Shown: positions 648 through 61,655 of the stretch, piece after piece
Position numbering within the stretch: position 1 is the stretch's first letter
How the letters are laid out: each line of letters starts with the position of its first letter
The notes under the pieces: generated by a model
What the model was told of the DNA's origin: nothing
The model's input: only the letters and a program-made list of their open reading frames with translations
Database searches by the model: none
Source of the DNA: Candidatus Omnitrophota bacterium
GTDB taxonomy: Bacteria; Omnitrophota; Gorgyraeia; 1-14-0-20-64-10
Assembly (NCBI GenBank): GCA_016201735.1
Contig: JACQCH010000017.1
Location: 7,910-71,909 of the forward strand
Direction of reading: 5' to 3'
Length of the DNA stretch: 64,000 nucleotides
Made by a program: the position numbers and the translations under genes

Positions 648-1264
648 CGGTACAAACGACGCTTCTCGATGTAGCGATAGACCGGCTCCGGAACAAGGGA
701 TTGAATCGGCTGGCCCTGTCGGATCAACTCCCGGATCTCCGAGGAGGAGATGTCCGGGGTCTTCACGGGAATCTCCCGGACCCCGGCAGGAAGCGGATCG
801 GAATTTTTTCCAGGACGAGGAATCGCGATCGGTTGAACCAACTGTTTCAGCCGATCGTATTCCCGCCAGGTCGGAAGCTCCCGCGCGGTGTCGGAACCAA
901 CCAGCAGAAACCATTCATTTTTTGAATCCTTGAACTGCTCCTGGATCTGCCGCACGGTGTCTATAGTATAGGAAGGGGGCGGCCTCTCCAATTCAACCCG
1001 GGAAAGTTGGAAGGATGGGTGATCCCGGATCGCCAGCTCCACCATCTCGGCCCGGTCCTCCGGGGAAACGCTTCGGCTCCGTTCGTCCTGAGCTTTGTCG
1101 AAGGACGAACAGGATTTGTCGGCTTCGGTCTTGTGCGGAGCGATGTGGGCGGGGATCCATAAGACCTGGTCGAGCTTGAGCAGTTTCTTGGCCCCTTCCG
1201 CCAAAAGCAGATGCCCGTTGTGAACCGGGTTAAAGGTCCCCCCCAACAGGCCGATCCGCTTTAT
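644..1264 (-). CDS. nadD: nicotinate-nucleotide adenylyltransferase NadD; start codon unresolved (ATA in ATAA overlap with proA stop); contains 36-bp in-frame repeat insertion
   Basis: Conserved N-terminal motif KRIGLLGGTFNPVHNGHL and WIPAHIAPHK in ORF 644..1591; no in-frame ATG/GTG/TTG within ~150 nt upstream of the conserved N-terminus; ~12 extra residues (SCSSFDKAQDER) relative to canonical NadD coincide with a palindromic repeat. Confidence 0.7.
   Translation of the reverse strand: MKRIGLLGGTFNPVHNGHLLLAEGAKKLLKLDQVLWIPAHIAPHKTEADKSCSSFDKAQDERSRSVSPEDRAEMVELAIRDHPSFQLSRVELERPPPSYTIDTVRQIQEQFKDSKNEWFLLVGSDTARELPTWREYDRLKQLVQPIAIPRPGKNSDPLPAGVREIPVKTPDISSSEIRELIRQGQPIQSLVPEPVYRYIEKRRLYR
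1078..1110. repeat. REP-like palindromic unit GTTCGTCCTGAGCTTTGTCGAAGGACGAAC inserted in frame in nadD
   Basis: Perfect 11-bp stem palindrome; same unit family as 35721..35790 and 52932..53009 (CCGTTCGTCCTGAGCYTGTSGAAGGACGAAC). Confidence 0.6.
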
Positions 1265-3762: not shown

Positions 3763-4881
3763 TCAGCTCTTGAGGATCACCATCGAGTCCCGGTGGATCA
3801 CCTCTTGAGCTTTGCGGCCCAGCGCCGACCGGATGGCGTCGCTCTTGAACCCTTTGATCTTCTCCAATTCGGCGTGGGAGTAGCCGACGATCCCCCGCGC
3901 GAATTCCTGGTCCTGGTTGATCTGTGCCACGGAAACCAGATCCCCTCGGCGGAAGTTCCCCTCAACCGCGTGGACCCCCGAAGCCAGCAGGGAAAGCCGC
4001 CGAGAAGCCAACGCTTCCCTCGCCCCGGAATCAACCAGGATCCGCCCCTTGGGCCTTCCCGTCAGGCCGAGCCACCGCTGTTTCCCCTTTAATCCGGATC
4101 CCTTTCTCGGAATAAACCATGTTCCAGAGAACTCCTTTTTCAGGAAGGCCTTCGTCAAACAATTCTCCTGCCGGCCGTTCATCAAAATCATTGGGATGCC
4201 GCTGGCCATCACGATCTTGGCTGCCTCTAATTTCGTCCGCATGCCGCCCGTGGAAACTGCTTTGGTCGTCCCCCCGGCCGCCCTTTCCAAATCCGGCGTG
4301 ATCTCTGTGACGAGGGCCTGAAAACCATCGGGACCTTTGAGCTGGTCCACATCGCTTAAAAGAACCAGCAGGTCCGCGTCCACCAGCGCCGCCACCTGAG
4401 CGGAGAGGATGTCGTTGTCTCCGTAGCGAATCTCCTCAACCGACACCGTGTCGTTCTCATTGATGATCGGAACCACCTGCGCCTTCAACAAAGTCAACAG
4501 GGTCGCTTTGGCATTTAGGTACCGCCGGTGATTTTCAAGATCGTCCCGGGTCAGAAGAATCTGCGCCGCGTGGAGGCCCTCTTTCTCGAAATGGGTCGTG
4601 TACCACTGCATGAGCCGGCCCTGCCCCGTCGCCGCGGCGGCCTGGAGCTTGGCCAACTCCTTGGGACGCTTCTTTAAATCCAAGATCCCCATTCCCACCC
4701 CGATGGCGCCGGAGGTCACAACGATCACCTCCATCTTTTGGCGCCAGAGGGCGGCCACCTCGGAAGCGATCGCCTCAACCCGGTGGCGGACCACTCCGGC
4801 ACGGTCAGGATCGGTCAAGACCGACGTACCCACCTTGACCACCAGCCGCTTAGCGGAGGAGAGAAATTCTGTGGGGTTCAT
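3763..4881 (-). CDS. proB: glutamate 5-kinase (with C-terminal PUA domain)
   Basis: 372 aa; LVVKVGTSVLTD..., kinase core and PUA-like C-terminus; ATGA overlap with obgE stop. Confidence 0.9.
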   Translation of the reverse strand: MNPTEFLSSAKRLVVKVGTSVLTDPDRAGVVRHRVEAIASEVAALWRQKMEVIVVTSGAIGVGMGILDLKKRPKELAKLQAAAATGQGRLMQWYTTHFEKEGLHAAQILLTRDDLENHRRYLNAKATLLTLLKAQVVPIINENDTVSVEEIRYGDNDILSAQVAALVDADLLVLLSDVDQLKGPDGFQALVTEITPDLERAAGGTTKAVSTGGMRTKLEAAKIVMASGIPMILMNGRQENCLTKAFLKKEFSGTWFIPRKGSGLKGKQRWLGLTGRPKGRILVDSGAREALASRRLSLLASGVHAVEGNFRRGDLVSVAQINQDQEFARGIVGYSHAELEKIKGFKSDAIRSALGRKAQEVIHRDSMVILKS

Positions 4882-5996
4882 ATTCCAATGTCATCCTCGC
4901 TAAAGCGAGGATCAGATTCCCGCTTTCGCGGGAATGACGGATCTCGAGATTGCTTCGGCTCTTCGAGCCTCGCAATGACCTCCCCTATCTTCTTCAACAG
5001 TTTCGGGACTCCCTCGCCAGTCTTGGCGGAGATCGGAAGTACCGTTCCCTTAATCTTCTTCTTGAACCGGGCCAGGTTTTTGGCGGCGGCCGGCTCGTCC
5101 ATTTTGTTGGCCGCCAGGATTTGCCGCTTGGCGGCGACCGCCGGATCGTACAGCTTCAATTCCCGGTTCAACGTCTCGTAATCCTCCACCGGGTCCCGGC
5201 CGTCCGCCCCAGCCATATCGATCAAGTGGACCAGGAGCGTGGTCCGTTCAATGTGCCTTAAGAACTCCAGCCCAAGCCCCTTTCCCCGGTGGGCCCCCTC
5301 GATCAAGCCGGGGACATCCACGGCGACGACGGAGTTCTTGGAGGGAAGCGTCACCGCCCCCAGCACCGGATGGATCGTCGTGAAAGGAAACGGAGCGATC
5401 TTGGGCCGGGCCTGCGAAATCTGCGCGATCAAGGTGGACTTGCCGGCATTGGGAAGTCCCACGATCCCGACGTCCGCGAGGAGTTTCAGTTCCAGCCGCA
5501 GACGTCTGCGTTCACCGGCCGCCCCGTCCAATTTGCCCGGCTCTAAGAGACGGATATCCCGGGAAGGAGCCCAGGAAGAAGTGGACCGGGACCTTTCCTT
5601 GGAGGCGTTGCCGACCCCGCCGGCCCCGCCCCGGGCGATCAGCATTTCATCACCGGGTTTGAGCAGTTCCTGGATCAGCTCGCCGGTGTCGGCGTCCCAA
5701 AGGAGTGTTCCCAAGGGGACGTTGATCCGGCAGTCGGTCCCTTGAGCGCCGTGCTGTTTCTTGGAAGAGGCGTTGCCGCCGTGCCCGGCCCGGAAATGCC
5801 GTTTGGCTTGGAAATCGAGGAGAGTGGTTAGCTGCGGGTTGGCGCGAACCAGGACATGGCCGCCCCGGCCCCCGTCCCCGCCGTCAGGGATTGCATGCCG
5901 GGTCCAGCGATCCTGGTAAAACGAACGGCACCCCTTGCCGCCCCGGCCGGCTTCCGCGAGGATGGATGCTTGGTCGACGAAACGGGTCGTTCTCAC
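4878..5996 (-). CDS. obgE: GTPase Obg/CgtA
   Basis: 372 aa; Obg fold N-terminus ([21 protein letters not shown], glycine-rich), G domain [10 protein letters not shown]; conserved rplU-rpmA-obg context. Confidence 0.9.
4895..4990. repeat. cluster of three tandem REP-like hairpins (GTCATCCTCGCTAAAGCGAGGATC; ATTCCCGCTTTCGCGGGAATGAC; GATTGC...GCAATGAC) lying inside the 3' end of obgE coding sequence
   Basis: Seen directly; translated in-frame as obg C-terminal tail ...[25 protein letters not shown]; third hairpin resembles unit inside aroA insertion (32216..32250). Confidence 0.6.
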
Positions 5997-7629: not shown

Positions 7630-7876
7630 ATAATGCTTCGGAGAGCTTCGGGGTGTCGGGGGTGGGCTGGATCCCGCCAGCAGGGCCAACCATTGAGGAT
7701 CAAGCCCTGATGGAATGGAAACCCAAGCTGAAATGAACGACTTTCCATGGAGAGTCCTGTCGGGTTTGGCCACCTGCCGATGCTCTGACATGGTGAATGT
7801 GAACAATCCGTCCGAACAGGCCCGATGCCGGGAGCCGGCCCGCCCCCGACAGGACCCCGGGCGGTGGTCCGGAGCA
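7630..7876. mobile_element. MITE-like repeat, truncated copy A (3' two-thirds of the ~0.5 kb element)
   Basis: Core GGAAACCCAAGCTGAAATGAACGACTTTCCATGG...GCTCTGACATGGTGAATGTGAACAA...CCGAACAGGCCCGATGCCGGG shared with 18808..19287 and 25975..26469; fills rng/TPR-protease intergenic gap. Confidence 0.6.
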
Positions 7877-18787: not shown

Positions 18788-18807
18788 CCCTGATTTCCTT
18801 ATTCATC

Positions 18808-19287
18808 CGAACAAGGCCCGATGCCGGGAGCGGACCGCTCCACGCCAGGCCCCGTCTCGTGGATGGGCTTCTCAGACCCGCTCGACGTCCCCAGCGAGGC
18901 CGTCTCGCTAAACGTCGGCCCTCGCTCTCTCCGCCGAACCCAAGCTCACCGGCGGAGAACCATGCCCGCTCGGGCCTCCGATTGTCTTCGAACCCCCTCC
19001 CCGAGCCGGAGCCATCGCATGAGACCTTCGGGGTGGCAGGGGGCAGGCCAGATTCCGCCAGCAGGGCCGACGTTTCAGGCCCATGCCCTGACCGAATGGG
19101 AACCCAAGCTGAAATGAACGACTTTCCATGGAACGTCCTGTTGGATTCGGCCATCTCCCGATGCTCTGACATGGTCAATGTGAACCATTCATCCGAACAA
19201 GGCCCGATGCCGGAACTGGCCTGCCCCCTGACAGGCCCCCGAAAGAAACAGGGGTGGTACCAGTCCAGCATCGCTGTGAACCATTCA
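18808..19287. mobile_element. MITE-like repeat, copy B, flanked by 9-bp direct repeat TTATTCATC (18799..18807 and 19288..19296)
   Basis: ~480 bp non-coding element filling entire pilB-pilC intergenic space; shares core and terminal sequences with copies at 7630..7876 and 25975..26469; ORF-track ORFs inside (18780..19295, 18859..19665) are repeat-derived. Confidence 0.65.
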
Positions 19288-25873: not shown

Positions 25874-25974
25874 AGGCGTACCCATTGGCGAGTATGGCTG
25901 ATTGTTGCTTATCTGTGCAAGACTCTGGCAAATCCACGCAATGTGTACATTGCACAATTGGTACCGCTTCCGGG

Positions 25975-26469
25975 GTCCTGGCGTGGAGCAGTCCGTTCCC
26001 GGCATCGGGCCTGTGTTGGAACTACGAGAGGACCCCGTCTCGGGGGATGGGCTTCTCAGGCCCGCTCGTCGACCCCAGCGACTCAGAGCTTACAAGTGGT
26101 GCGGCCTCCTCTAGCCGCAGCCACGTGGTCGACTTCGCTAATCGAAAATCCCTCGCTCGTCCCCGGAATTTCAGAGCGCGGGGGACACCATGCCCGCTTG
26201 GGATTTTCATTGCCTTCGAACCCCATCCCCCGAGCCGGGGTCCTCGCAGATTCGTCGATCCTCGGGGTGGCGGGGAGCGGTCCGATTCCCGCCAGCAGTG
26301 CCGACGTTTGAGGCCGAGCTCTGTTGAATGGAAACCCATGCTGAAATGTACGACTTTCCATGGAACGTCCTGTTGGGTTTGGCCACCTGCCCATGCTCTG
26401 ACATGGTGAATGTGAACAACCCATCCGAACAAGGCCCGATGCCGGGAACGGACCGCTCCACGCCAGGAC
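25975..26469. mobile_element. MITE-like repeat, full-length copy C with ~45-bp terminal inverted repeats
   Basis: Left end GTCCTGGCGTGGAGCAGTCCGTTCCCGGCATCGGGCCTGTGTTGG vs right end CCGAACAAGGCCCGATGCCGGGAACGGACCGCTCCACGCCAGGAC (about 41/45 complementary); no credible ORF; contains sub-repeat module (26078..26130) that also occurs inside aroA and an alpha/beta hydrolase gene. Confidence 0.7.
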
Positions 26470-26510
26470 CCCGAAGGAACTAGGAGAGGATTAAATTTCT
26501 GGGAGGTGGA

Positions 26511-31728: not shown

Positions 31729-33111
31729 TCAACGGCGAATCGACTCTAAGATCTCGACGAATTCGGGGAAGGAGATATCGATCCACTCCGCCCCCTCGAT
31801 CGTGGTCTGCCCTTTCGCCGCCAACCCGGCCACGGCCAGCGCCATGGCGGTCCGATGATCGTTGAAACTTTTGACCCGGGCCCCTTTCAAGGGAACGGGC
31901 CCTTCAATCCGGATCTCATCTCCCTCGGCCTGAATCTTGGCTCCCATCGCCGTCAGACCCGTCGCCATCGAAACAATCCGATCGGCCTCCTTGACCCGGA
32001 GCTCCCCCGCTCCTTGAATCAGGGTGATCCCTTGGGCTTGAGTCGCGGCCACCATCAGGATCGGAAGCTCATCAATCAGCCCTGGAATCGCCGCCGGGCC
32101 GACCCGAATCCCTTTGAGCGGCGCATGGCTCACCGTCACATCCCCGACCGGCTCCCAGGAGTCCACGTCATGGCTGCGGTTAGAGGAGACCGCACCATTT
32201 CTAAGCTCTAGGTCATTGCGAGCGACCAACGGGAGTGAAGCAATCTCGCTTTTAACATTCGCCCCCATTTGCTTCAACATCTCCAAGAAGCCGGTCCGGG
32301 TCGGATTCAGGCCGACTTGACGGACCGTCACGGAGGATCCGGGAACGATCGCCGCGGCCGCGAGGAAGAAGGCGGCGCTGGAAATATCCCCGGGGATGGT
32401 GAGATCTTTCCCCTTCAGTTCCGGGCCGGGAACCAGGGTGATCTCCGGGCCTTCCCTTTTAATCTGCGCTCCGAAATGCTCAAGCATCCGCTCGGTATGG
32501 TCCCGGGTGGGGATCGGCTCGACGACCGTCGTGGGTTCCTTCGCGTAGAGAGCTGCCAGCAGGAGAGCCGATTTGACCTGTGCCGAGGGAACCGGAAGCG
32601 TGTAGAGGATCCCATGCAGACCTCCGCCCCGGACCGTGAGCGGCAGATGATCCGCCCCATCCGGCCCTTGGATATCCGCCCCCATCTTCCCGAGAGGTTC
32701 GGTAACGCGGCGCATCGGCCGCTGGGAGAGAGAAGCATCCCCGCTTAAAGTCGCAGAGAAAGATTGCCCGGCCAGCAGTCCCAAGAGGAGCCGTGTCGTC
32801 GTCCCGGAATTGCCCATCTCCAGGGGGGAGGAGGGAGTTTTAAAACCGTAGAGCCCGCGGCCCTCGATAACGACCCTCTCGGCTTCCTCTTGGATCCGGA
32901 TCCCGAGAGCCCGGAGGGCCCGCCGCGTCGATTCATTGTCTTCCGATTCCAGGCAATGATCGATCCGTGTTGTCCCTTGGCTGACCGCGCCCAAGAGCAG
33001 GGCCCGGTGAGAAATCGATTTGTCTCCCGGAAGGGACAGTTCCCCTCGGAGAGAATGAGCCGGAGAGATCGTCAGGTGTGCCATGTGGATGAGGGAACCA
33101 ATTCCGTTCAC
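31729..33111 (-). CDS. aroA: 3-phosphoshikimate 1-carboxyvinyltransferase (EPSP synthase) carrying ~90-bp in-frame repeat insertion
   Basis: 460 aa; LPGDKSISHRALLLGA, EPSPS fold motifs; extra segment SLPLVARNDLELRNGAVSSNRSHDVDSW coincides with repeat at 32161..32250. Confidence 0.85.
   Translation of the reverse strand: MNGIGSLIHMAHLTISPAHSLRGELSLPGDKSISHRALLLGAVSQGTTRIDHCLESEDNESTRRALRALGIRIQEEAERVVIEGRGLYGFKTPSSPLEMGNSGTTTRLLLGLLAGQSFSATLSGDASLSQRPMRRVTEPLGKMGADIQGPDGADHLPLTVRGGGLHGILYTLPVPSAQVKSALLLAALYAKEPTTVVEPIPTRDHTERMLEHFGAQIKREGPEITLVPGPELKGKDLTIPGDISSAAFFLAAAAIVPGSSVTVRQVGLNPTRTGFLEMLKQMGANVKSEIASLPLVARNDLELRNGAVSSNRSHDVDSWEPVGDVTVSHAPLKGIRVGPAAIPGLIDELPILMVAATQAQGITLIQGAGELRVKEADRIVSMATGLTAMGAKIQAEGDEIRIEGPVPLKGARVKSFNDHRTAMALAVAGLAAKGQTTIEGAEWIDISFPEFVEILESIRR
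32161..32250. repeat. composite REP-like insertion inside aroA (sub-repeat of MITE family + GGTCATTGCGAG...GAAGCAATC hairpin)
   Basis: ~85% identity over ~54 bp to reverse complement of 26078..26130; second half resembles hairpin in obg tail (4955..4990). Confidence 0.55.
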
Positions 33112-33165
33112 CCTGAGTCCCCGATCGAGTCGGGGGCAAGCTTTGTCGAAGGGTGAATGGATATG

Positions 33166-34006: not shown

Positions 34007-34921
34007 TCAAGGGAAAAGAGCCGCAGCTTGGGCCAGGTCCTCCGGCCAGGGAGATTGGAATTCGACCCAGCGGCCGGAATGGGGATGATTGAATCCGAGC
34101 CGATGGGCGTGGAGGGCCTGCCGGGGAAATCCTGCCCTGAGCCCAGTCGAAGGGCCGGCCTGAACCCCGTACCGGGTATCCCCCAGGATCGGGTGCCCCA
34201 AGTGGGCCAGGTGAACCCGGAGCTGATGAGTCCGGCCGGTCTGCGGGGTCAGCTCCAGGAAAGTGGCGGTGGAGAATCTTTTTAGGACCCGGTAGCGGGT
34301 CACGGCGTCCCGGGTCGCGTCGTACCGGACCGCCATCCGCTGGCGCTTCACTGGATGCCGCCCGATGGGAGCGTCAATCACCCCCTCCTGCCGCCGCACC
34401 AAACCCTGAACCAGCGCCAAGTAAACCCGATGGACTTTCCGGGAGGCGAACTGCTCGCTCAAATGCCGGTGCGTGGCGTCGTCCTTCGCCACCAGAAGCA
34501 GGCCGGAGGTGTCCTTGTCCAGCCGATGAACGATTCCCGGCTTGAACGGCCCCGCCACCGACGAGAGGCGGCCGCCGTGAGCCAGCAGGGCGTTGACCAG
34601 GGTGCCGGAAGGATTCCCTGCCGCCGGGTGAACCACCAGCCCCGCCGGCTTGTTGACGACGAGAAGATATTTGTCCTCGTAGACGATCTTTAACGGGATC
34701 GGCTCCGGCTTTAGGTTCATCGGAGCCGGCGGAGGAATTTCGATGGACAGTTTCTTCCCCGGAATGATCCGGTGAGACGGCTTGACCGATTTGCCGTCGA
34801 CCTGGATGTGCCCCCCGGAAATAAGTTTCTGGATCTGGGCCCGGGAAGAGTCGGGGAGGATCACCGTCAGGTACCGGTCGAGACGCTGAGGAATCGCGTC
34901 CGGGGGGATGGTAAGGGTCAT
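34007..34921 (-). CDS. rluD: 23S rRNA pseudouridine synthase, RluA/RluD family
   Basis: 304 aa; S4 domain N-terminus, catalytic LLVVNKPAGLVVHP and HRLDKDTSGLLL motifs. Confidence 0.85.
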   Translation of the reverse strand: MTLTIPPDAIPQRLDRYLTVILPDSSRAQIQKLISGGHIQVDGKSVKPSHRIIPGKKLSIEIPPPAPMNLKPEPIPLKIVYEDKYLLVVNKPAGLVVHPAAGNPSGTLVNALLAHGGRLSSVAGPFKPGIVHRLDKDTSGLLLVAKDDATHRHLSEQFASRKVHRVYLALVQGLVRRQEGVIDAPIGRHPVKRQRMAVRYDATRDAVTRYRVLKRFSTATFLELTPQTGRTHQLRVHLAHLGHPILGDTRYGVQAGPSTGLRAGFPRQALHAHRLGFNHPHSGRWVEFQSPWPEDLAQAAALFP

Positions 34922-35709
34922 TTCGACGAGCGAAGCGAGGAGAAATCTCGATTTTTAGAGCGGGATTTCTCGGCCTGGCGGCCTCGAAATGACTTAAAGA
35001 GTAGCCACCCGCATGTGAGCGCTAAAGGAATGCTCGCCCATTGGAACGCGGTCAAACCGCAGGCCGCCGCCGGATTGTCTCCCCGGAGGAACTCGATGAA
35101 GAATCGCCAGATTCCGTAAGAGAATCCGTAGATCAAGAAGACGGTTCCTGGCCTGGGACGCCGGCGCTCCACGGCTTTCAGCAGAAAGAATAGAAGAATC
35201 AGCGCTCCCGATTCATAAAGCTGGGTCGGATGACGCGGGACGGTTTCCGGTGGGAAAACTACCGCCCAAGGAACCGAGGACGGTTTCCCGTAGCAGCAGC
35301 CATTAAGGAAGCAGCCGATCCGGCCGATCGCGTGGGCCAGCACGAGCGGCGGCACCATCAGATCCACGGTGATCCAGAGAGGGAGTTGGGCCTTCCTTAC
35401 AGTCCAGATTCCAGTGAGGATCCCCCCTGCCAATCCGCCGTAGAAGACGAGCCCTCCATGATCCAGCCGAATGATTTCCAGAAGGTTGGAGCGAAACGCC
35501 GCCCAATTCAGCGCCACGTAAGCGGCCCGGGCTCCCGCGATCCCACCGAGAAGGACAACGACTCCCAGCGTCTGGATCTGGGTGGGATTCAAGCCCAGAC
35601 GCAGGGCCCGCCGGGCCGCGAGACGGATCGCCCCCAGGAACCCCAAAGCCAGCATTAGGCCGTAGCTGTAGAAGGTGAACGGCCCCCAACGAAATAGGAT
35701 TGGGTGCAT
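34918..35709 (-). CDS. lgt: prolipoprotein diacylglyceryl transferase
   Basis: Start MHPILFRWGPFTFYSYGLMLALGF (ATG 35709); Lgt signature HPTQLYES; upstream part of ORF-track ORF overlaps palindromic repeat. Confidence 0.85.
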   Translation of the reverse strand: MHPILFRWGPFTFYSYGLMLALGFLGAIRLAARRALRLGLNPTQIQTLGVVVLLGGIAGARAAYVALNWAAFRSNLLEIIRLDHGGLVFYGGLAGGILTGIWTVRKAQLPLWITVDLMVPPLVLAHAIGRIGCFLNGCCYGKPSSVPWAVVFPPETVPRHPTQLYESGALILLFFLLKAVERRRPRPGTVFLIYGFSYGIWRFFIEFLRGDNPAAACGLTAFQWASIPLALTCGWLLFKSFRGRQAEKSRSKNRDFSSLRSSK

Positions 35710-35720
35710 CGGACAATCCC

Positions 35721-35790
35721 CCGTTCGTGCTGAGCCTGTCGAAGCACGAACCTCCATTAGTTCACCCTTCGACAAGCTCAGGGTGAACGG
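35721..35790. repeat. 70-bp nested-palindrome REP-like element occupying the lspA-lgt intercistronic gap
   Basis: CCGTTCGTGCTGAGCCTGTCGAAGCACGAAC ... TTCACCCTTCGACAAGCTCAGGGTGAACGG; two hairpins that are also mutually complementary; same family as 1078..1110 and 52932..53009. Confidence 0.6.
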
Positions 35791-36666: not shown

Positions 36667-36826
36667 CCCGCCCCTCCATGGATCGGGACGCCAAAACTGC
36701 GCTCAGGAGCACTGTGGGCGTCCCGAAAAGCTCCATGAGCTTTTATTCTCTGGGGCAACCCGGAAATTACCCTCATGCTCATCCTCCCTCCATGGCCCCA
36801 GAGAAATCCATGGAGGGGCGGGGTCA
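36663..36826 (-). promoter_or_regulatory. structured GC-rich inverted-repeat element between ileS stop and dksA start; outer arms TGACCCCGCCCCTCC / GGAGGGGCGGGGTGA pair and would sequester dksA SD + GTG
   Basis: On minus strand: ileS stop TGA is first 3 nt of 5' arm; inner stems UCUCUGGGGC/GCCCCAGAGA and GGGACGCC/GGCGUCCC; homologous element upstream of ADH at 42458..42691. Confidence 0.5.
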
Positions 36827-39694
36827 TCGTAAACCGAGAGTATACCACATGTTCACCGTTTCCACGCACCGATGGCACAGGGCCGGATGCTCCGAAGAAG
36901 CCCCTACCGAAGGCAGCCGCATCCAGCAGCGCTGGCACTTGGACCCGGCTGCCGGGCGGACATTCATCTGAAGTGCCGGGCCGGGCCCGGATCCCGGGAC
37001 AATCTCCAGTTTCGAAACGATGCAGGCCAGCTCCAACTCCGACCGGCGCTTCGTCAGAAAGTCCAACGATTCCTTATCCTGGACCAGGATCTCCAACTCC
37101 GCTTCCAGAGAATCTCCGATCTGGCCTCCCTCTCGCGCCTTCTCCAACGCCTTCATCGCCTGGTCTCTGAACTGAATCAGGCGGGCCCAGTCCGCTTCCA
37201 GCGATCGGTCCGGCGGCAGACCCGGAGAGATGGGCCAATCCTGCAGGTGCACGCTCCGGCTGCGGTTGGAGGAAACCGCACCAGGCGCCTCGGCGCTCCC
37301 GCCGCTGGGGAGCCCGAAGGCGGTCCAGGCCTCTTCCGCCGTCAGCGGAAGGATCGGGGCGATCAGGCGGATCATTGCGTCGGTCAGGATTGCCAGAACG
37401 GTTTGAATCTCCCGCCGCTGGGGATCCTTGGGGTAAAAAGTGTACAGCCGATCCTTGATCACATCGAGATAAAAGTTGGAGAGGATGCCCGTGCAGAATT
37501 CATGGATCTTCTTGACCGCCCGGTGAAACGCATATTGCTCGTAGGCATCGGTCACCTCCCGCACAAGGGCACCAAACTGCAGAAGTATCCAGCGGTTGAG
37601 CCCCTGCATCTTCTCCAGCGGGACCCGGACTTCCGAGGCCTGGAAATCGGACAGGTTGGCCAGCATGAACCGGAGGGTGTTCCGGATCTTCCGGTACACC
37701 TCGGCGGTCTGCGACAGGATCTCCGGTGAGATCCGAACATCTTCCCGATAGTCGGAGGCGGCCACCCAGAGCCGCAGGAGATCAGCCCCCAGCGAGGAGA
37801 CCACCTCCTGCGGAGCGGTGACGTTCCCCAGCGACTTCGACATCTTCCGCCCTTGGCCGTCCACGACGAACCCGTGGGTCAGCACCGCCCGGTAAGGGGC
37901 CTTCCCCTCCAGCGCCACCCCGGTGATCAGCGAAACCTGGAACCAGCCCCGGTGCTGGTCCGATCCTTCCAGGTACATGTCGGCTGGGACTGCGTGATCT
38001 TCGCGGCGCTTCAAGACGGCTTGATGACTGACCCCGGAATCAAACCAGACATCCAGGATGTCGGTTCCCGGTTTGAAATCGGATTTGCCGCATTTGCATT
38101 TCAATCCGGCGGGGAGCCACCGGCTGACCGGCTCGCTGAACCACCGGTCGCTCCCCTCCGGGTCCTTCTCGATCTCTTTCGCGAACCGGTCGATCACCCG
38201 GGAGTCCAGAATTCCTTCTCCGCAGCCAGAGCAGATCACCGCCGGGATCGGGATCCCCCAGAGCCGCTGGCGGGAGAGGCACCAGTCCGGCCGGGTCTTG
38301 ATCATGCCGGCCATCCGCTCCTTTCCCTCCGGCGGGATCCATTGAACCTGTTTCTCGACGGCGTCGAGCAGTTTCCGGCGGAGATCCTCATGCTCGACGT
38401 TCAAGAACCATTGGTCGGTCGCCCGGAAGATGATCGGGTTGTGACACCGCCAGCAGTGTGGATACTGATGTTCCTCTTCGCCGGCTTTCACGAGAGCTCC
38501 CCGTTGTTTGAGCAGTTCGATGACGGCGGGATTGGCTGTCTGAACCTGCTGGCCGTTAAATTGTGCGACTTCTTTGGGCAAGCCGACGAACTGTCCCCGT
38601 GAATCGACCGGCGCCAATACCTCCAGCCCGTATTTCTTTCCGATCGCGTAATCCTCAGCTCCGAACCCGGGCGCCGTGTGAACCAGCCCCGTCCCGTCCT
38701 CCGAGGAAACGTAATCAGCCAGAATGACTTTCCCTTCCCGCAATCCAAACGGATGCTGATAACGAAGTCCGTCAAGATCGCGACCGCGAAATCGATGAAA
38801 GATGGAGCTGGGATCTTCGGACAAACCGAGATCTTTTTGGGCCACTTCTGGCAAACGGGCCAGCGTCACCCAGATTTCATCCGGGTTAGTTCCTTTTCGC
38901 GCGACGTATTCATAATCCGGATGAATCGCCACGCCGACATTGCCCATCAATGTCCAGGGAGTGGTTGTCCAAATCACTAAATAGGCCTTCCGTGGCTGGA
39001 TTCCAAGAGGATTCATCCTAAGAGCGGCGTTCTTTTCCAATTCAAACTTCATGTAGATCGAGGGAGAGCGGTGCATCTCGTACTCCACCTCGGCCTCGGC
39101 CAGGGCGGTCTCGCAGGACCAGCACCAGTTGACCGGCTTCCGGGCCCGATACACGAAACCTTTCCCGACGAGCGTGCTCAAGACCTGCAGGGCCGCCGAC
39201 ACGTACCCCGGCTCCAGCGTCAGGTACGGATGCTCCCAATCCCCCTGAACCGCCAGCCGTTTGAACTGATCCCGCTGGATCCCGACGTATTTCATGGCGT
39301 AGGCCCGGGCCTTGCGGCGGAACTCCAGCGTGTCCACCTGATGCTTGGTAACCTTCAGCTCCTTCATCAGGGCGTACTCGATCGGCAGACCGTGGCAGTC
39401 CCAGCCGGGAATGTACGGGGCCTTCCTCCCCCGCATCCCTTTGTACCGGACGATGAAATCCTTGAGCACCTTGTTCAAGGCATGCCCGATGTGAATGTCC
39501 CCGTTGGCGTACGGCGGCCCGTCGTGGAGGACAAAGGCCGGCGCCCCCTTCCGGTGTTCCAGGAACTGGGAATAAAGTCCTTCCCGTTCCCATTGGTCCA
39601 GGATCTTCGGCTCGCTCTGAGGGAGATTTCCCTTCATCGGGAAAGAGGTCTTCGGCAGGTTCAGGGTCGATTTGTAATCGGTCACCGGATTCAC
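36824..39694 (-). CDS. ileS: isoleucyl-tRNA synthetase
   Basis: 956 aa; HIGH (PYANGDIHIGH), KMSKS, C-terminal zinc-binding Cys cluster. Confidence 0.95.
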   Translation of the reverse strand: MNPVTDYKSTLNLPKTSFPMKGNLPQSEPKILDQWEREGLYSQFLEHRKGAPAFVLHDGPPYANGDIHIGHALNKVLKDFIVRYKGMRGRKAPYIPGWDCHGLPIEYALMKELKVTKHQVDTLEFRRKARAYAMKYVGIQRDQFKRLAVQGDWEHPYLTLEPGYVSAALQVLSTLVGKGFVYRARKPVNWCWSCETALAEAEVEYEMHRSPSIYMKFELEKNAALRMNPLGIQPRKAYLVIWTTTPWTLMGNVGVAIHPDYEYVARKGTNPDEIWVTLARLPEVAQKDLGLSEDPSSIFHRFRGRDLDGLRYQHPFGLREGKVILADYVSSEDGTGLVHTAPGFGAEDYAIGKKYGLEVLAPVDSRGQFVGLPKEVAQFNGQQVQTANPAVIELLKQRGALVKAGEEEHQYPHCWRCHNPIIFRATDQWFLNVEHEDLRRKLLDAVEKQVQWIPPEGKERMAGMIKTRPDWCLSRQRLWGIPIPAVICSGCGEGILDSRVIDRFAKEIEKDPEGSDRWFSEPVSRWLPAGLKCKCGKSDFKPGTDILDVWFDSGVSHQAVLKRREDHAVPADMYLEGSDQHRGWFQVSLITGVALEGKAPYRAVLTHGFVVDGQGRKMSKSLGNVTAPQEVVSSLGADLLRLWVAASDYREDVRISPEILSQTAEVYRKIRNTLRFMLANLSDFQASEVRVPLEKMQGLNRWILLQFGALVREVTDAYEQYAFHRAVKKIHEFCTGILSNFYLDVIKDRLYTFYPKDPQRREIQTVLAILTDAMIRLIAPILPLTAEEAWTAFGLPSGGSAEAPGAVSSNRSRSVHLQDWPISPGLPPDRSLEADWARLIQFRDQAMKALEKAREGGQIGDSLEAELEILVQDKESLDFLTKRRSELELACIVSKLEIVPGSGPGPALQMNVRPAAGSKCQRCWMRLPSVGASSEHPALCHRCVETVNMWYTLGLR

Positions 39695-41631: not shown

Positions 41632-42320
41632 TGAAAGATCGCCGTCCCGATCCGCACCATCGTCGCTCCTTCCTCCACCGCCACCTCCAAGTCCTGGCTC
41701 ATCCCCATGGACAAATCCAGCGAGGGGTCGATCCCATCCCGAAGCCGGCGCAATTGCCGGAAAACCGGTCGGGCCGATTCCGGATCGTCGGCAAATGGGG
41801 CCATCGTCATGAAGCCCGACAATTTCAGATTCTTCGATTTCAAGATCGCCGCCGCCAGCACCCTTGCTTCGTCCGGCTTACAGCCATGCTTGGCCGCCTC
41901 TCCCGACACATTCACCTGAACCAGCAGCTCCAACCCCCGCTCGGGCTGAGCCGGTCGAAGCCCGACGGCCCGACCCAGCGCCTCGACCAGCTCCAGCGAG
42001 TCGACCGAGTGAACCACGTCGAACAGCTCCACCGCGGCCCTCACCTTGTTCCGCTGAAGGTGCCCGATCAGGTGCCAGCGGACTTCGCGCCCGATCGCCG
42101 GCTGTTTCTGCTGGGCTTCCTGGACCCGGTTCTCGCCGATCTCCCGCACCCCGCAGGCAATCGCCTCCCGGATCCTCTCGACCGGAACTCCTTTGGTCAC
42201 ACCGATGAGACGCACGCCGGCAGGGTCTCGGCCTTTAGACCGGGCCGCTGCCGCAATCCGTTGCCGGATCTGCTCCAGGTTCGCGTCGATCACCCCGCCC
42301 CTCCGGAGTTCCGCTTCCAT
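41628..42320 (-). CDS. yggS: PLP homeostasis protein YggS (alanine racemase N-terminal fold)
   Basis: 230 aa; LIGVTKGVP...IGHLQRNK motifs; ATGA overlap with proC start. Confidence 0.85.
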   Translation of the reverse strand: MEAELRRGGVIDANLEQIRQRIAAAARSKGRDPAGVRLIGVTKGVPVERIREAIACGVREIGENRVQEAQQKQPAIGREVRWHLIGHLQRNKVRAAVELFDVVHSVDSLELVEALGRAVGLRPAQPERGLELLVQVNVSGEAAKHGCKPDEARVLAAAILKSKNLKLSGFMTMAPFADDPESARPVFRQLRRLRDGIDPSLDLSMGMSQDLEVAVEEGATMVRIGTAIFQ

Positions 42321-52931: not shown

Positions 52932-53009
52932 CCGTTCGTCCTGAGCTTGTGGAAGGACGAACATTTGTACTCGGTTCCGTTCATGGTTCGACAAGCTCAC
53001 CATAAACGG
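52932..53009. repeat. nested-palindrome REP-like element upstream of giant gene
   Basis: CCGTTCGTCCTGAGCTTGTGGAAGGACGAAC ... CCGTTCATGGTTCGACAAGCTCACCATAAACGG; family shared with 1078..1110 and 35721..35790. Confidence 0.55.
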
Positions 53010-60380: not shown

Positions 60381-60650
60381 TCTGAGGGGAAAACCATTGC
60401 GTGGTTTTCCCCTCAGGACTCCCCAATCCAGCAAAAGCAATCGGTCTCGTTGGGGGAGATCTCCCATCTCCCCCAACATCCCCCTCTTCCAGAGGAAGGC
60501 CCCGGCTCGGTGGATGAGTTCGAAGACCCTCGGAGGCCCGAGCGGGCATGGTTCTCCGCCTGTGAGCTTAATTATGGCGGAGAGAGCGAGGGCCGGAGTA
60601 GGAGCGAGGCGGACACGCTGGGTCCGCCGAGCGTGTCTGAGAACTCGCCA
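60381..60650. mobile_element. two strong hairpins (60381..60416, 60450..60476) plus inverted partial MITE-like copy E (60478..60650) in divergent GDPD/hydrolase intergenic region
   Basis: 60478..60650 is reverse complement of the left half of copy B (e.g. GGAGGCCCGAGCGGGCATGGTTCTCCGCC); hairpins CTGAGGGGAAAACCA/TGGTTTTCCCCTCAG and TTGGGGGAGAT/ATCTCCCCCAA. Confidence 0.5.
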
Positions 60651-60665
60651 CCGAGCCGGGGCCGG

Positions 60666-61655
60666 ATGGCCATGGCTGGGTTGCTGATCGTAACGCTGAG
60701 TGGATGTGCGTCGGTTCCGATGACGGGTCAAAGTACTGATCATCCTCCTCTGTCCGAAAAATTAATTTCTTATTATGCATATCCGCGGCAATCCTTAGAA
60801 GCGACCGTGGAATCGATTCAGGAGAAGTCCGGGTATCGGATCCGGCACCTGCATCTGGCCGCACCGAACGATTCCGCCTTCCGCCCGATCCGGATTGATT
60901 TCTACCAATCCAATCGGCCGGGGCGGCTGCGGCTAGAGGGAGCCGCACCACTTGTAAGCTCTGAGTCGCGCCTGCCGGTGGTTCTGATGTCCCCGATCCT
61001 GGCGGGGAATGATCTGTACATCCGGGAGTTCGCTCAGTATTACGCGGCGCGGGGCCTGCATTCCGTAATCGTCTACCGGCCGAAGGAGGTTTTCTCCGCG
61101 GACCGGGACTTGAAAGACATTGAAACCCATTTCCAGGAATCGATCATCCAGCTGCGGCGGACGATCGATTGGCTGGAGACACTGGACTCGGTCGACCCCC
61201 GGCGGATCGGATCCTTCGCCATCAGTCTCGGAGCCATCCTCACCATTCCCCTGGCGGCGGTGGAACCCCGAGTGAAAGCTCATGTTTTTGGAATGCCCGC
61301 GGGACACCTCGCCCAGGTGATCATGACCTCCAAGGACAGAACGATCCGAAAACGACGCAGGGCCTATCTGGAAAAGCACGGGTGGAGTCAGGAAGAGGGA
61401 CTGCGCCAGCTAAAAGCGGTGATCGTTTCGGAGCCGATGGAATTCGCCTCAGGGATCGATCCTGAAAGAGTCCTGGTGATCGCGGGACTTTTTGATCGGG
61501 TCCTGGGAGTCCGGCGGTCGCTTGATCTCTGGCAGGCGATGGGCCGGCCGAAACTGATCGTGCTTCCGACCGGGCATTACTCGGCTTACCTGGCCACCCC
61601 GTACCTGAAGATCGTCACCTACTCGTTCTTCCGCCGCCAACTAAAGCTTAAATAG
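60666..61655 (+). CDS. lipoprotein alpha/beta hydrolase (dienelactone-hydrolase-like) with ~40-bp in-frame repeat insertion
   Basis: Start MAMAGLLIVTLSGCAS (lipobox LSGC); AISLG nucleophile-elbow variant; segment LRLEGAAPLVSSESR encoded by repeat at 60935..60975; upstream 118 codons of ORF 60312..61655 are repeat-derived. Confidence 0.55.
   Translation: MAMAGLLIVTLSGCASVPMTGQSTDHPPLSEKLISYYAYPRQSLEATVESIQEKSGYRIRHLHLAAPNDSAFRPIRIDFYQSNRPGRLRLEGAAPLVSSESRLPVVLMSPILAGNDLYIREFAQYYAARGLHSVIVYRPKEVFSADRDLKDIETHFQESIIQLRRTIDWLETLDSVDPRRIGSFAISLGAILTIPLAAVEPRVKAHVFGMPAGHLAQVIMTSKDRTIRKRRRAYLEKHGWSQEEGLRQLKAVIVSEPMEFASGIDPERVLVIAGLFDRVLGVRRSLDLWQAMGRPKLIVLPTGHYSAYLATPYLKIVTYSFFRRQLKLK
60935..60975. 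repeat. sub-repeat module (GAGCCGCACCACTTGTAAGCTCTGAGTCGCG) inserted in frame in hydrolase gene
   Basis: Reverse complement matches 26080..26110 in MITE copy C and 32165..32215 in aroA. Confidence 0.5.

Follow-up and report, generated by a model that had tools for sequence, protein, structure and literature searches.

How does a short palindromic repeat come to be read in frame, as extra amino acids, within an essential gene? The question is raised by nadD, which encodes nicotinate-nucleotide adenylyltransferase, in a Candidatus Omnitrophota bacterium from which we analysed a 64-kb stretch of contig JACQCH010000017.1 (hereafter, the window). The initial annotation of this stretch had claimed that a palindrome resembling repetitive extragenic palindromic (REP) sequences is inserted in frame in nadD, and this claim was borne out by our analysis. 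It is probable, in our judgement, that the palindrome is an old and tolerated solo copy of a dispersed hairpin, whose complete form is a cassette with a small GIY-YIG nuclease gene, and that this copy was inserted once and is translated as a loop of the protein.

The palindrome, GTTCGTCCTGAGCTTTGTCGAAGGACGAAC, spans 30 nt at positions 1081-1110, and reads on the plus strand as GTTCGTCCT-GAGCTTTGTCGA-AGGACGAAC, that is, a perfect stem of 9 bp (arms at 1081-1089 and 1102-1110) with a loop of 12 nt. Its in-frame translation from the coding strand is CSSFDKAQDER. Among 100 dinucleotide-preserving shuffles not one matched the pattern of the palindrome, and the hairpin has predicted folding energies of −10.4 kcal/mol as single-stranded DNA (ssDNA; z −3.0, stem of 9-11 bp) and −16.8 kcal/mol as RNA (z −3.2). 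A profile hidden Markov model (HMM), built from 104 units of other genomes, matches nadD at 1079-1110 with E=1e-8, and the palindrome is a solo unit, on the plus strand at 1079-1112, of the hairpin family CCGTTCG..CTGAGC..GTCGAAG..CGAACGG. The nadD copy measures 34 nt, against 33 nt for the family unit, having three rather than two bases at the centre of the loop. Since this three-base centre recurs as a minority variant, in 16 of 171 units from unbiased loci, the additional base need not be taken as a later repair of the reading frame.

The gene was delimited from the list of open reading frames (ORFs) as 644 to ~1258 on the minus strand, its conserved part running from RIGLLGGTFNPVHNGH to the stop codon. 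Its start is uncertain: it could be a GTG at 1297, in which case nadD and the end of proA would overlap, or 1246, as called in the database. The protein is a 100% match to the NadD of a Candidatus Omnitrophica metagenome-assembled genome (MAG), matches PF01467, and aligns with NadD from Bacillus subtilis (1kam) with E=1.5e-34. Its catalytic motifs, GGTFNPVHNGH and ISSSEIR, are unbroken.

That the extra segment is an insertion rather than an ancestral stretch, as the initial annotation held, is shown by an alignment of the window NadD and 29 orthologs (49-75% identity), 28 of which lack the segment, and by the solved structures 1kam and 8aih, which have a clean gap of 14-15 residues at this position. 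The extra residues sit where they had been placed, flanked by the PPHK motif and the RAEMVELAI helix, but they number 14 (42 nt, about 1070-1111, minus strand, encoding CSSFDKAQDERSRS) and not about 12; the edges, drawn from protein and codon-level DNA alignments, may move by a few bases with the alignment. The palindrome lies within the insert, eight of whose 42 bases fall outside the unit. Among the orthologs, only the closest (P0002, 75% identity) carries the segment, as RSSFDSAQDERSRG, whereas the next closest (P0003, 72%) is without it. The loci of these two proteins, on contigs from one sample, provided a filled site (L120) and an empty site (L121), and in the codon-level alignment L121 shows a clean gap of exactly 42 nt.

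The inserts of the window and L120 have in common their length, the rare three-base loop centre and the eight bases that are not part of the unit. Because of these shared features, the alignments would be most economically read as one insertion event, in the common ancestor of the window lineage and its closest sampled relative. The two nadD genes have diverged to 75% identity at the protein level and 56% at third codon positions. The only difference between their stems is compensatory, from G-C to A-T (GTTCGTCCT/AGGACGAAC in the window versus GTTCATCCT/AGGATGAAC in L120), and the hairpin is stable in both copies (−11.4 kcal/mol, z −3.6, in L120). Identity at codon positions 1, 2 and 3 is 79, 93 and 64% in the insert and 78, 86 and 56% in the rest of nadD, with 14 codons in the insert. 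Since insert and gene are indistinguishable in conservation with so few codons, we do not claim extra selection on the hairpin.

An AlphaFold model computed from the NadD alignment has a mean predicted local distance difference test (pLDDT) score of 89.2, which falls to about 51-53 at residues 41-60, a stretch that covers most of the modelled insert (residues 50-63). Together with the ortholog alignment, which the initial annotation had proposed as the means of locating the insert and which places it in a gap that separates the PPHK motif from the next helix, the model situates the insert in a predicted flexible loop. Other orthologs of the Omnitrophica-like type (P0075, P0065 and P0007) have insertions of their own elsewhere in the protein, for instance FGKRRPRGLAPFSPPLVKKCLTPF in P0075, and these sequences suggest that repeat-derived loop insertions may recur in the NadD of this clade.

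To which family, then, does the unit belong? Its consensus is CCGTTCG-NN-CTGAGC-(TT or NNN)-GTCGAAG-NN-CGAACGG, and its two variable stem pairs covary, being paired in 91-92% of units versus 49-62% after shuffling, with four pair types at each. Scanning species-representative genomes (one genome per species) with TTCGNNCTGAGCTTGTCGAAGNNCGAA returned at least 119 loci. The matches listed come from many phyla, with hosts that include Dehalococcoidia, Binatia, Sphingomonadales, Gallionella, Crenothrix, Methylococcaceae, Omnitrophota, Fibrobacteres, Planctomycetia and Myxococcales, among others, and across them the loop is nearly identical. Five of the six reading frames of the 33-nt unit are open, and their translations are PFVLSLSKDE, VRPELVEGRT, PFVLRQAQDER, RSSFDKLRTN and VRPSTSSGRT. 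An 8-kb locus from a Salinisphaeraceae MAG (L023) is a hot spot of the family, with around 30 units plus partial units, often accompanied by tandem GAAGG(G/A)AGCCTGTC sub-repeats.

Rfam has no family for the unit, and no part of the window matched Rfam at gathering thresholds; the miRNA-precursor-like matches of the inverted doublets described below, obtained at permissive E-values only, were dismissed as noise. No tRNA or tmRNA from which the motif could derive was found in the window. The motif was also considered as a hammerhead, an attC site or a CRISPR repeat, and these readings were dropped after inspection of the sequence by eye, as neither the conserved positions nor the arrangement fit. 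In full-text literature neither the DNA strings of the unit nor its peptide read-outs were found, and searches on GIY-YIG together with repetitive extragenic palindromic sequences, and on UPF0213, COG2827 or YhbQ, gave nothing relevant.

A partner gene of the hairpin emerged from all-against-all clustering of the ORFs of 116 unit-bearing loci. The clusters that spanned at least five loci were one of small GIY-YIG ORFs and two of common families, whose inspected members are histidine kinases and ABC ATPases. The GIY-YIG cluster comprises ORFs of ~95 aa from five loci, four of which have units no more than 100 nt away on both sides, and these small ORFs are PF01541 GIY-YIG domains (E about 1e-18). 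As an unbiased test, metagenome contigs were searched with the alignment of the GIY-YIG protein alone, and the best 80 loci were kept. Units were present in 76 of these 80 protein-selected loci. A unit lay within 150 nt of the GIY-YIG gene upstream in 62 of 80, downstream in 64 of 78, and in both positions in 53 of 78; the gaps had medians of 31 nt upstream and 28 nt downstream. The nearest unit was mostly in plus orientation upstream (50:12) and in minus orientation downstream (52:13). At distances of up to 150 nt from the gene, units occurred at 6.65 per kb, versus 0.07-0.09 per kb beyond 500 nt, an enrichment of ~80-fold. The complete element is a cassette of ~0.4 kb, namely, a plus hairpin, a single-domain GIY-YIG gene of ~95 aa and a minus hairpin. 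This flanking by inverted units is a feature of the family as sampled in these metagenome loci.

The copies within the window other than that in nadD are largely intergenic, and the two that the initial annotation had assigned to the same family, at 35721-35790 and 52932-53009, are both matched by the HMM (E from 6e-11 to 8e-7). In contrast to the single unit of nadD, both are inverted doublets. The first, on the plus strand, consists of a plus unit (35721-35751; nhmmer E 6e-11), a spacer of 8 nt and a minus unit (35760-35790; E 5e-10), and lies between lspA and lgt, as these genes are named by Pfam; it can form one long hairpin (−21.6 kcal/mol as ssDNA, z −6.8). The second, also on the plus strand, has a plus unit at 52932-52962 (E 1e-8), a spacer of 14 nt and a minus unit at 52977-53009 (E 8e-7), and its neighbours, from ORFs and Pfam, are the start of an ORF of 2016 aa and an AAA_14/DUF4143 gene. 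The order of the units is that of the cassette, plus and then minus, with only 8-14 nt between them, so the doublets may represent a gene-less derivative of it.

Two further sites complete the inventory. Upstream of aroA, at 33104-33160 on the plus strand, two nhmmer half-matches and reading of the sequence delimit an intergenic unit with a small nested hairpin, CCCCGATCGAGTCGGGG, that splits its loop. A doubtful, degenerate unit lies at 41937-41965 (plus strand; nhmmer E=1.6e-3; read-out GLRPAQPER), within a gene for a YggS-like protein of PLP homeostasis. We did not count the latter as a coding copy: the match is weak, only ~4 residues are extra relative to 6kzw and 7ygf, and it may be due to chance. 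Only about one in seven of the units of the window is inside a gene, though roughly nine-tenths of the window is coding, which fits a strong purging of most coding insertions.

The closest described parallel is Ssn. SsnA of Neisseria is a 94-aa single-domain GIY-YIG protein, whose gene lies between NTS hairpins (CGTCATTCCCGCGMAVGCGGGAATCYRG); the protein binds this hairpin in ssDNA only, and cleaves upstream of it (Chenal et al., Nat Commun 2025, PMC11893778). The arrangement NTS-gene-NTS limits gene replacement by transforming DNA in Neisseria, and in different phyla thousands of Ssn homologs have on their flanks Ssn-related motifs (SRM), which were searched for with a pattern derived from 29 genomes (PMC11893778). 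These authors note a likeness to insertion sequences and to REP sequences with their REP-associated tyrosine transposases (RAYT), and leave the mechanism of repeat expansion open (PMC11893778). The present family resembles Ssn/NTS in having a GIY-YIG gene of ~94 aa between inverted hairpin repeats of 20-50 nt, and in that the hairpins are dispersed in many additional genomic copies across phyla. Unlike NTS (GTCATTCCCGCG...GCGGGAATC), the unit combines a CCGTTCG...CGAACGG stem with a CTGAGC-N2-3-GTCGAAG loop. The partner protein shows 39% identity (E 2e-13) with the NTS-flanked gene of N. gonorrhoeae, whose flanking NTS hairpins we verified in its sequence; no NCBIfam model matches the partner. 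By analogy with Ssn, the unit may be an Ssn-type hairpin that is cleaved by its partner nuclease.

Two observations on NTS-like sequences were made along the way. The proA-nadD spacer of the closest relative (L120, 379-402) contains a hairpin of the GTCATTCCCGCG...GCGGGAATC type; in the window, proA and nadD abut or overlap, and this element is missing. In the N. gonorrhoeae record that we used (L203, labelled as a plasmid of 2.17 Mb, hence chromosome-sized, and almost without annotation), the NTS-flanked ssnA-like gene at 601-873 is apparently broken close to the 5' end, where MHGLYFSKPT is followed by a stop.

Precedents also exist for the insertion itself, and the suggestion of the initial annotation that this genome shows an unusual pattern of tolerance is to be qualified in view of them. 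Rickettsia palindromic elements (RPEs) have been described as palindromic repeats that lie in frame in conserved functional genes and whose translation adds segments to the protein surface (Ogata et al. 2000, 2002; PMC3184786, PMC5896051). [quoted passage not shown] The nadD insert is like RPEs as so described, being an in-frame palindrome within a conserved functional gene, with the frame kept, no stop codon and insert-free orthologs. RPEs are about 105-146 bp long and known from Rickettsia, whereas the unit has 33-34 nt and occurs in many phyla. With ORF-fusing MITEs the family shares the position in frame inside a gene, or as the extension of a gene end, as in the Obg tail described below; unlike MITEs, which measure 100-400 bp and have terminal inverted repeats and target-site duplications, the unit is a single hairpin of 33 nt with no visible duplication. 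As for Ssn, NTS are rare inside genes (2%), in-frame coding copies are not discussed, and Rickettsia is named among the SRM-rich genera with no mention of RPEs (PMC11893778). The nadD insertion belongs to a kind of repeat already described, and is not a new system.

With these comparisons at hand, the course of events may be outlined. A single unit, together with some eight additional bases, would have entered nadD once, in the ancestor shared with the closest sampled relative, by whatever process disperses the hairpins, plausibly nuclease-dependent events on ssDNA; the nuclease, or the cassette as a whole, would be what spreads the units. The insert would have survived and become fixed as nearly harmless thanks to its length of 42 nt, to a unit without stops in five of six frames, and to a landing site within a flexible loop. 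Since then the 14 extra residues would have been translated, the insert evolving about like the rest of the protein with its hairpin-forming ability kept, presumably as a neutral passenger.

Several observations weigh against this account. We found no GIY-YIG gene in the 64-kb window by tblastn (best E 0.23), nor in the 7.7 kb that lie beyond. Scores of the partner protein with the UPF0213 members 1zg2 and 1ywl equal or exceed its score with the Neisseria gene, and it may belong to the Ssn clade (CDD cd10448) or be UPF0213-like; how Ssn repeats multiply is not established in PMC11893778. The SRM pattern, HGTCWYN(0-2)YYVSBRHN(0-5)WNVSBRGN(0-2)RNCYNB, was not matched by three stem variants of the unit on either strand, with an NTS control that did match; since this pattern is a search heuristic from 29 genomes, such failure marks a different class of sequence and not a different kind of element. 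At the insert itself, no target-site duplication is visible in the alignment of filled and empty DNA, and eight of the inserted bases are left unexplained by the hairpin unit; a GCTTCGG direct repeat nearby was rejected as a target-site duplication, as its spacing is incompatible with an insert of 42 nt. Finally, the conservation of the insert is indistinguishable from that of the rest of nadD, and 14 codons do not separate a passenger from a selected element.

This last point bears on the alternative that deserves most attention, namely, that the hairpin is kept for a function as nucleic acid, either as a target that an Ssn-like nuclease would recognise in nadD ssDNA, with the possible effect that transforming DNA replaces the gene less readily, as with NTS-gene-NTS in Neisseria, or as a structure in the mRNA that holds up ribosomes or alters decay. 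The hairpin has outlasted divergence to 56% identity at third positions with a single, compensatory change in its stem; the changes between window and L120 concentrate at the loop centre, as they do across the family; and Ssn biology assigns a function in ssDNA to such hairpins (PMC11893778). However, the peptide, conserved at 11 of 14 residues, could alone preserve the stem, the insert is statistically like the rest of the gene over its 14 codons, nadD has only one hairpin and no flanking pair, and the window and the 7.7 kb beyond it gave no GIY-YIG gene that could act on it. We therefore regard a retained nucleic-acid function as unlikely. Still less probable is a classical REP, or REP doublet forming hairpins (REPIN), mobilised by a RAYT, that is, an HUH-Y1 transposase, as the initial annotation had intimated when it called the pattern reminiscent of REPINs. 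As to form the likeness is real, for the unit is a GC-rich imperfect palindrome of ~33 nt that occurs solo and as inverted doublets folding as one long hairpin, as do the short GC-rich palindromes of REP, bacterial interspersed mosaic elements (BIME) and REPIN; moreover, in both cases the enzyme is encoded by a single gene that the repeats flank, and ssDNA hairpins are the likely substrate (PMC2817692, PMC3333891). The enzyme does not agree, since the recurrently flanked gene encodes a GIY-YIG nuclease, and no Y1 transposase cluster appeared among the ORFs of the 116 loci, in which no dedicated search with a RAYT profile was made. Neither do the position frequencies of the 104 units, which show the CCGTTCG foot, no 5' GTAG/GGAG head, and no conservation outside the foot. 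REPIN-RAYT systems are lineage-specific and vertically inherited, whereas this family spans many phyla with a nearly identical loop.

The two remaining explanations do without a mobile repeat. A native, lineage-specific expansion of the NadD loop, resembling the repeat by coincidence, would find company in the insertions that P0075, P0065 and P0007 bear at other positions. Such a coincidence is unlikely: the HMM match spans the full 33-nt consensus, including both halves of the loop and both arms of the stem, the shuffles gave no match at all, and hairpins of the same family are in frame in unrelated proteins elsewhere. We give this explanation hardly any credence. The other, a repeat collapsed into nadD during metagenome assembly, comes to mind as the source is a MAG and repeats are a classic cause of chimeric joins. 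In two Logan assemblies, which are independent and come from different runs, the region of the insertion is 100% identical, so that such an artefact can be ruled out; moreover, the diverged relative (L120), from another project, bears the same insertion, and the reading frame is intact across it.

NadD is not the only protein in which such repeats are translated, as the initial annotation had proposed when it spoke of repeated landing in frame in this genome. Its examples of aroA and obg held up, whereas the hydrolase insertion that it also listed could not be identified. In aroA (31729-33081, minus strand), an insertion of ~25 residues relative to solved EPSP synthases (aa 280-304; DNA 32160-32248) consists of a copy of a second repeat family, with other copies at 26056-26134, 37247-37283 and 60914-60969, followed by a hairpin of the GTCATTGCGAG...GAAGCAATC type. 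In obg (4878-5996, minus strand), which together with proA and proB lies upstream of nadD on the same strand, the last ~30 residues, located past its Pfam domains, are specified by three hairpins in a row (4884-4979) at the gene's 3' end; that at 4912-4939, CGTCATTCCCGCGAAAGCGGGAATCTGA, is one base off the Neisseria NTS consensus, and that at 4945-4979 is of the GTCATTGCGAG...GAAGCAATC type. Outside the window genome, an inverted CCGTTCG-family doublet is in frame in a Mo-hydroxylase of a Binatia MAG (L046, 5446-5538), where it accounts for ~60 residues between two MoCoBD domains, and in a ModC-like ATPase of a Methylococcaceae MAG (L038, around 5601-5630), with ~35-40 residues in the ABC_tran domain; both are absent in homologs. 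From these sequences, in-frame insertion of this hairpin family is not peculiar to the window genome. Long ORFs that span units at several other loci were rejected as coding insertions, being read-through from upstream (GatB, Asd) or having no Pfam support.

Other repeats of the window were recorded in passing. In ileS (36824-39694, minus strand), the copy of the second family at 37247-37283 falls in the anticodon-binding region of IleRS, which is ~20 residues longer than the Pfam profile, possibly another in-frame insertion. At the 3' end of lgt (34918-35709, minus strand), the tail of the protein beyond the LGT domain holds a hairpin, GTCATTTCGAGGCCGCCAGGCCGAGAAATC, at 34950-34993. A larger scattered family, at 7658-7847, 18804-19239, 25970-26473 and 60495-60969, is made of pieces of 40-190 nt with 67-98% identity, in both orientations, and its sequence is unrelated to the nadD hairpin.

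For NadD itself, the consequence of the insertion is probably small, a loop of 14 residues. For the family, a likely partner enzyme can now be named for a widespread palindrome that is undescribed as far as the literature could be searched. The translations of its open frames explain many spurious or chimeric ORFs, "proteins" with motifs such as PFVLSLSKDE, FDKLRANG or RQAQGER. The filled and empty cases of hairpins absorbed into essential enzymes are useful both for annotation and for work on how proteins tolerate insertions. Current counts of Ssn-related repeats are probably too low, because this hairpin class falls outside the published SRM pattern, and new pairs of hairpin and nuclease are candidates for ssDNA tools. 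It is tempting to speculate, albeit we think it rather unlikely, that Ssn-like cassettes are genuine mobile elements, that their solo hairpins supply housekeeping proteins with in-frame peptide insertions generally and across phyla (nadD, aroA, obg, ileS and lgt here, and the Mo-hydroxylase and ABC ATPase in other phyla), and that embedded hairpins may be live targets of the nuclease. If true, coding palindromes, a puzzle for 25 years, and possibly the RPEs of Rickettsia among them, would thereby be tied to a defined family of enzymes.

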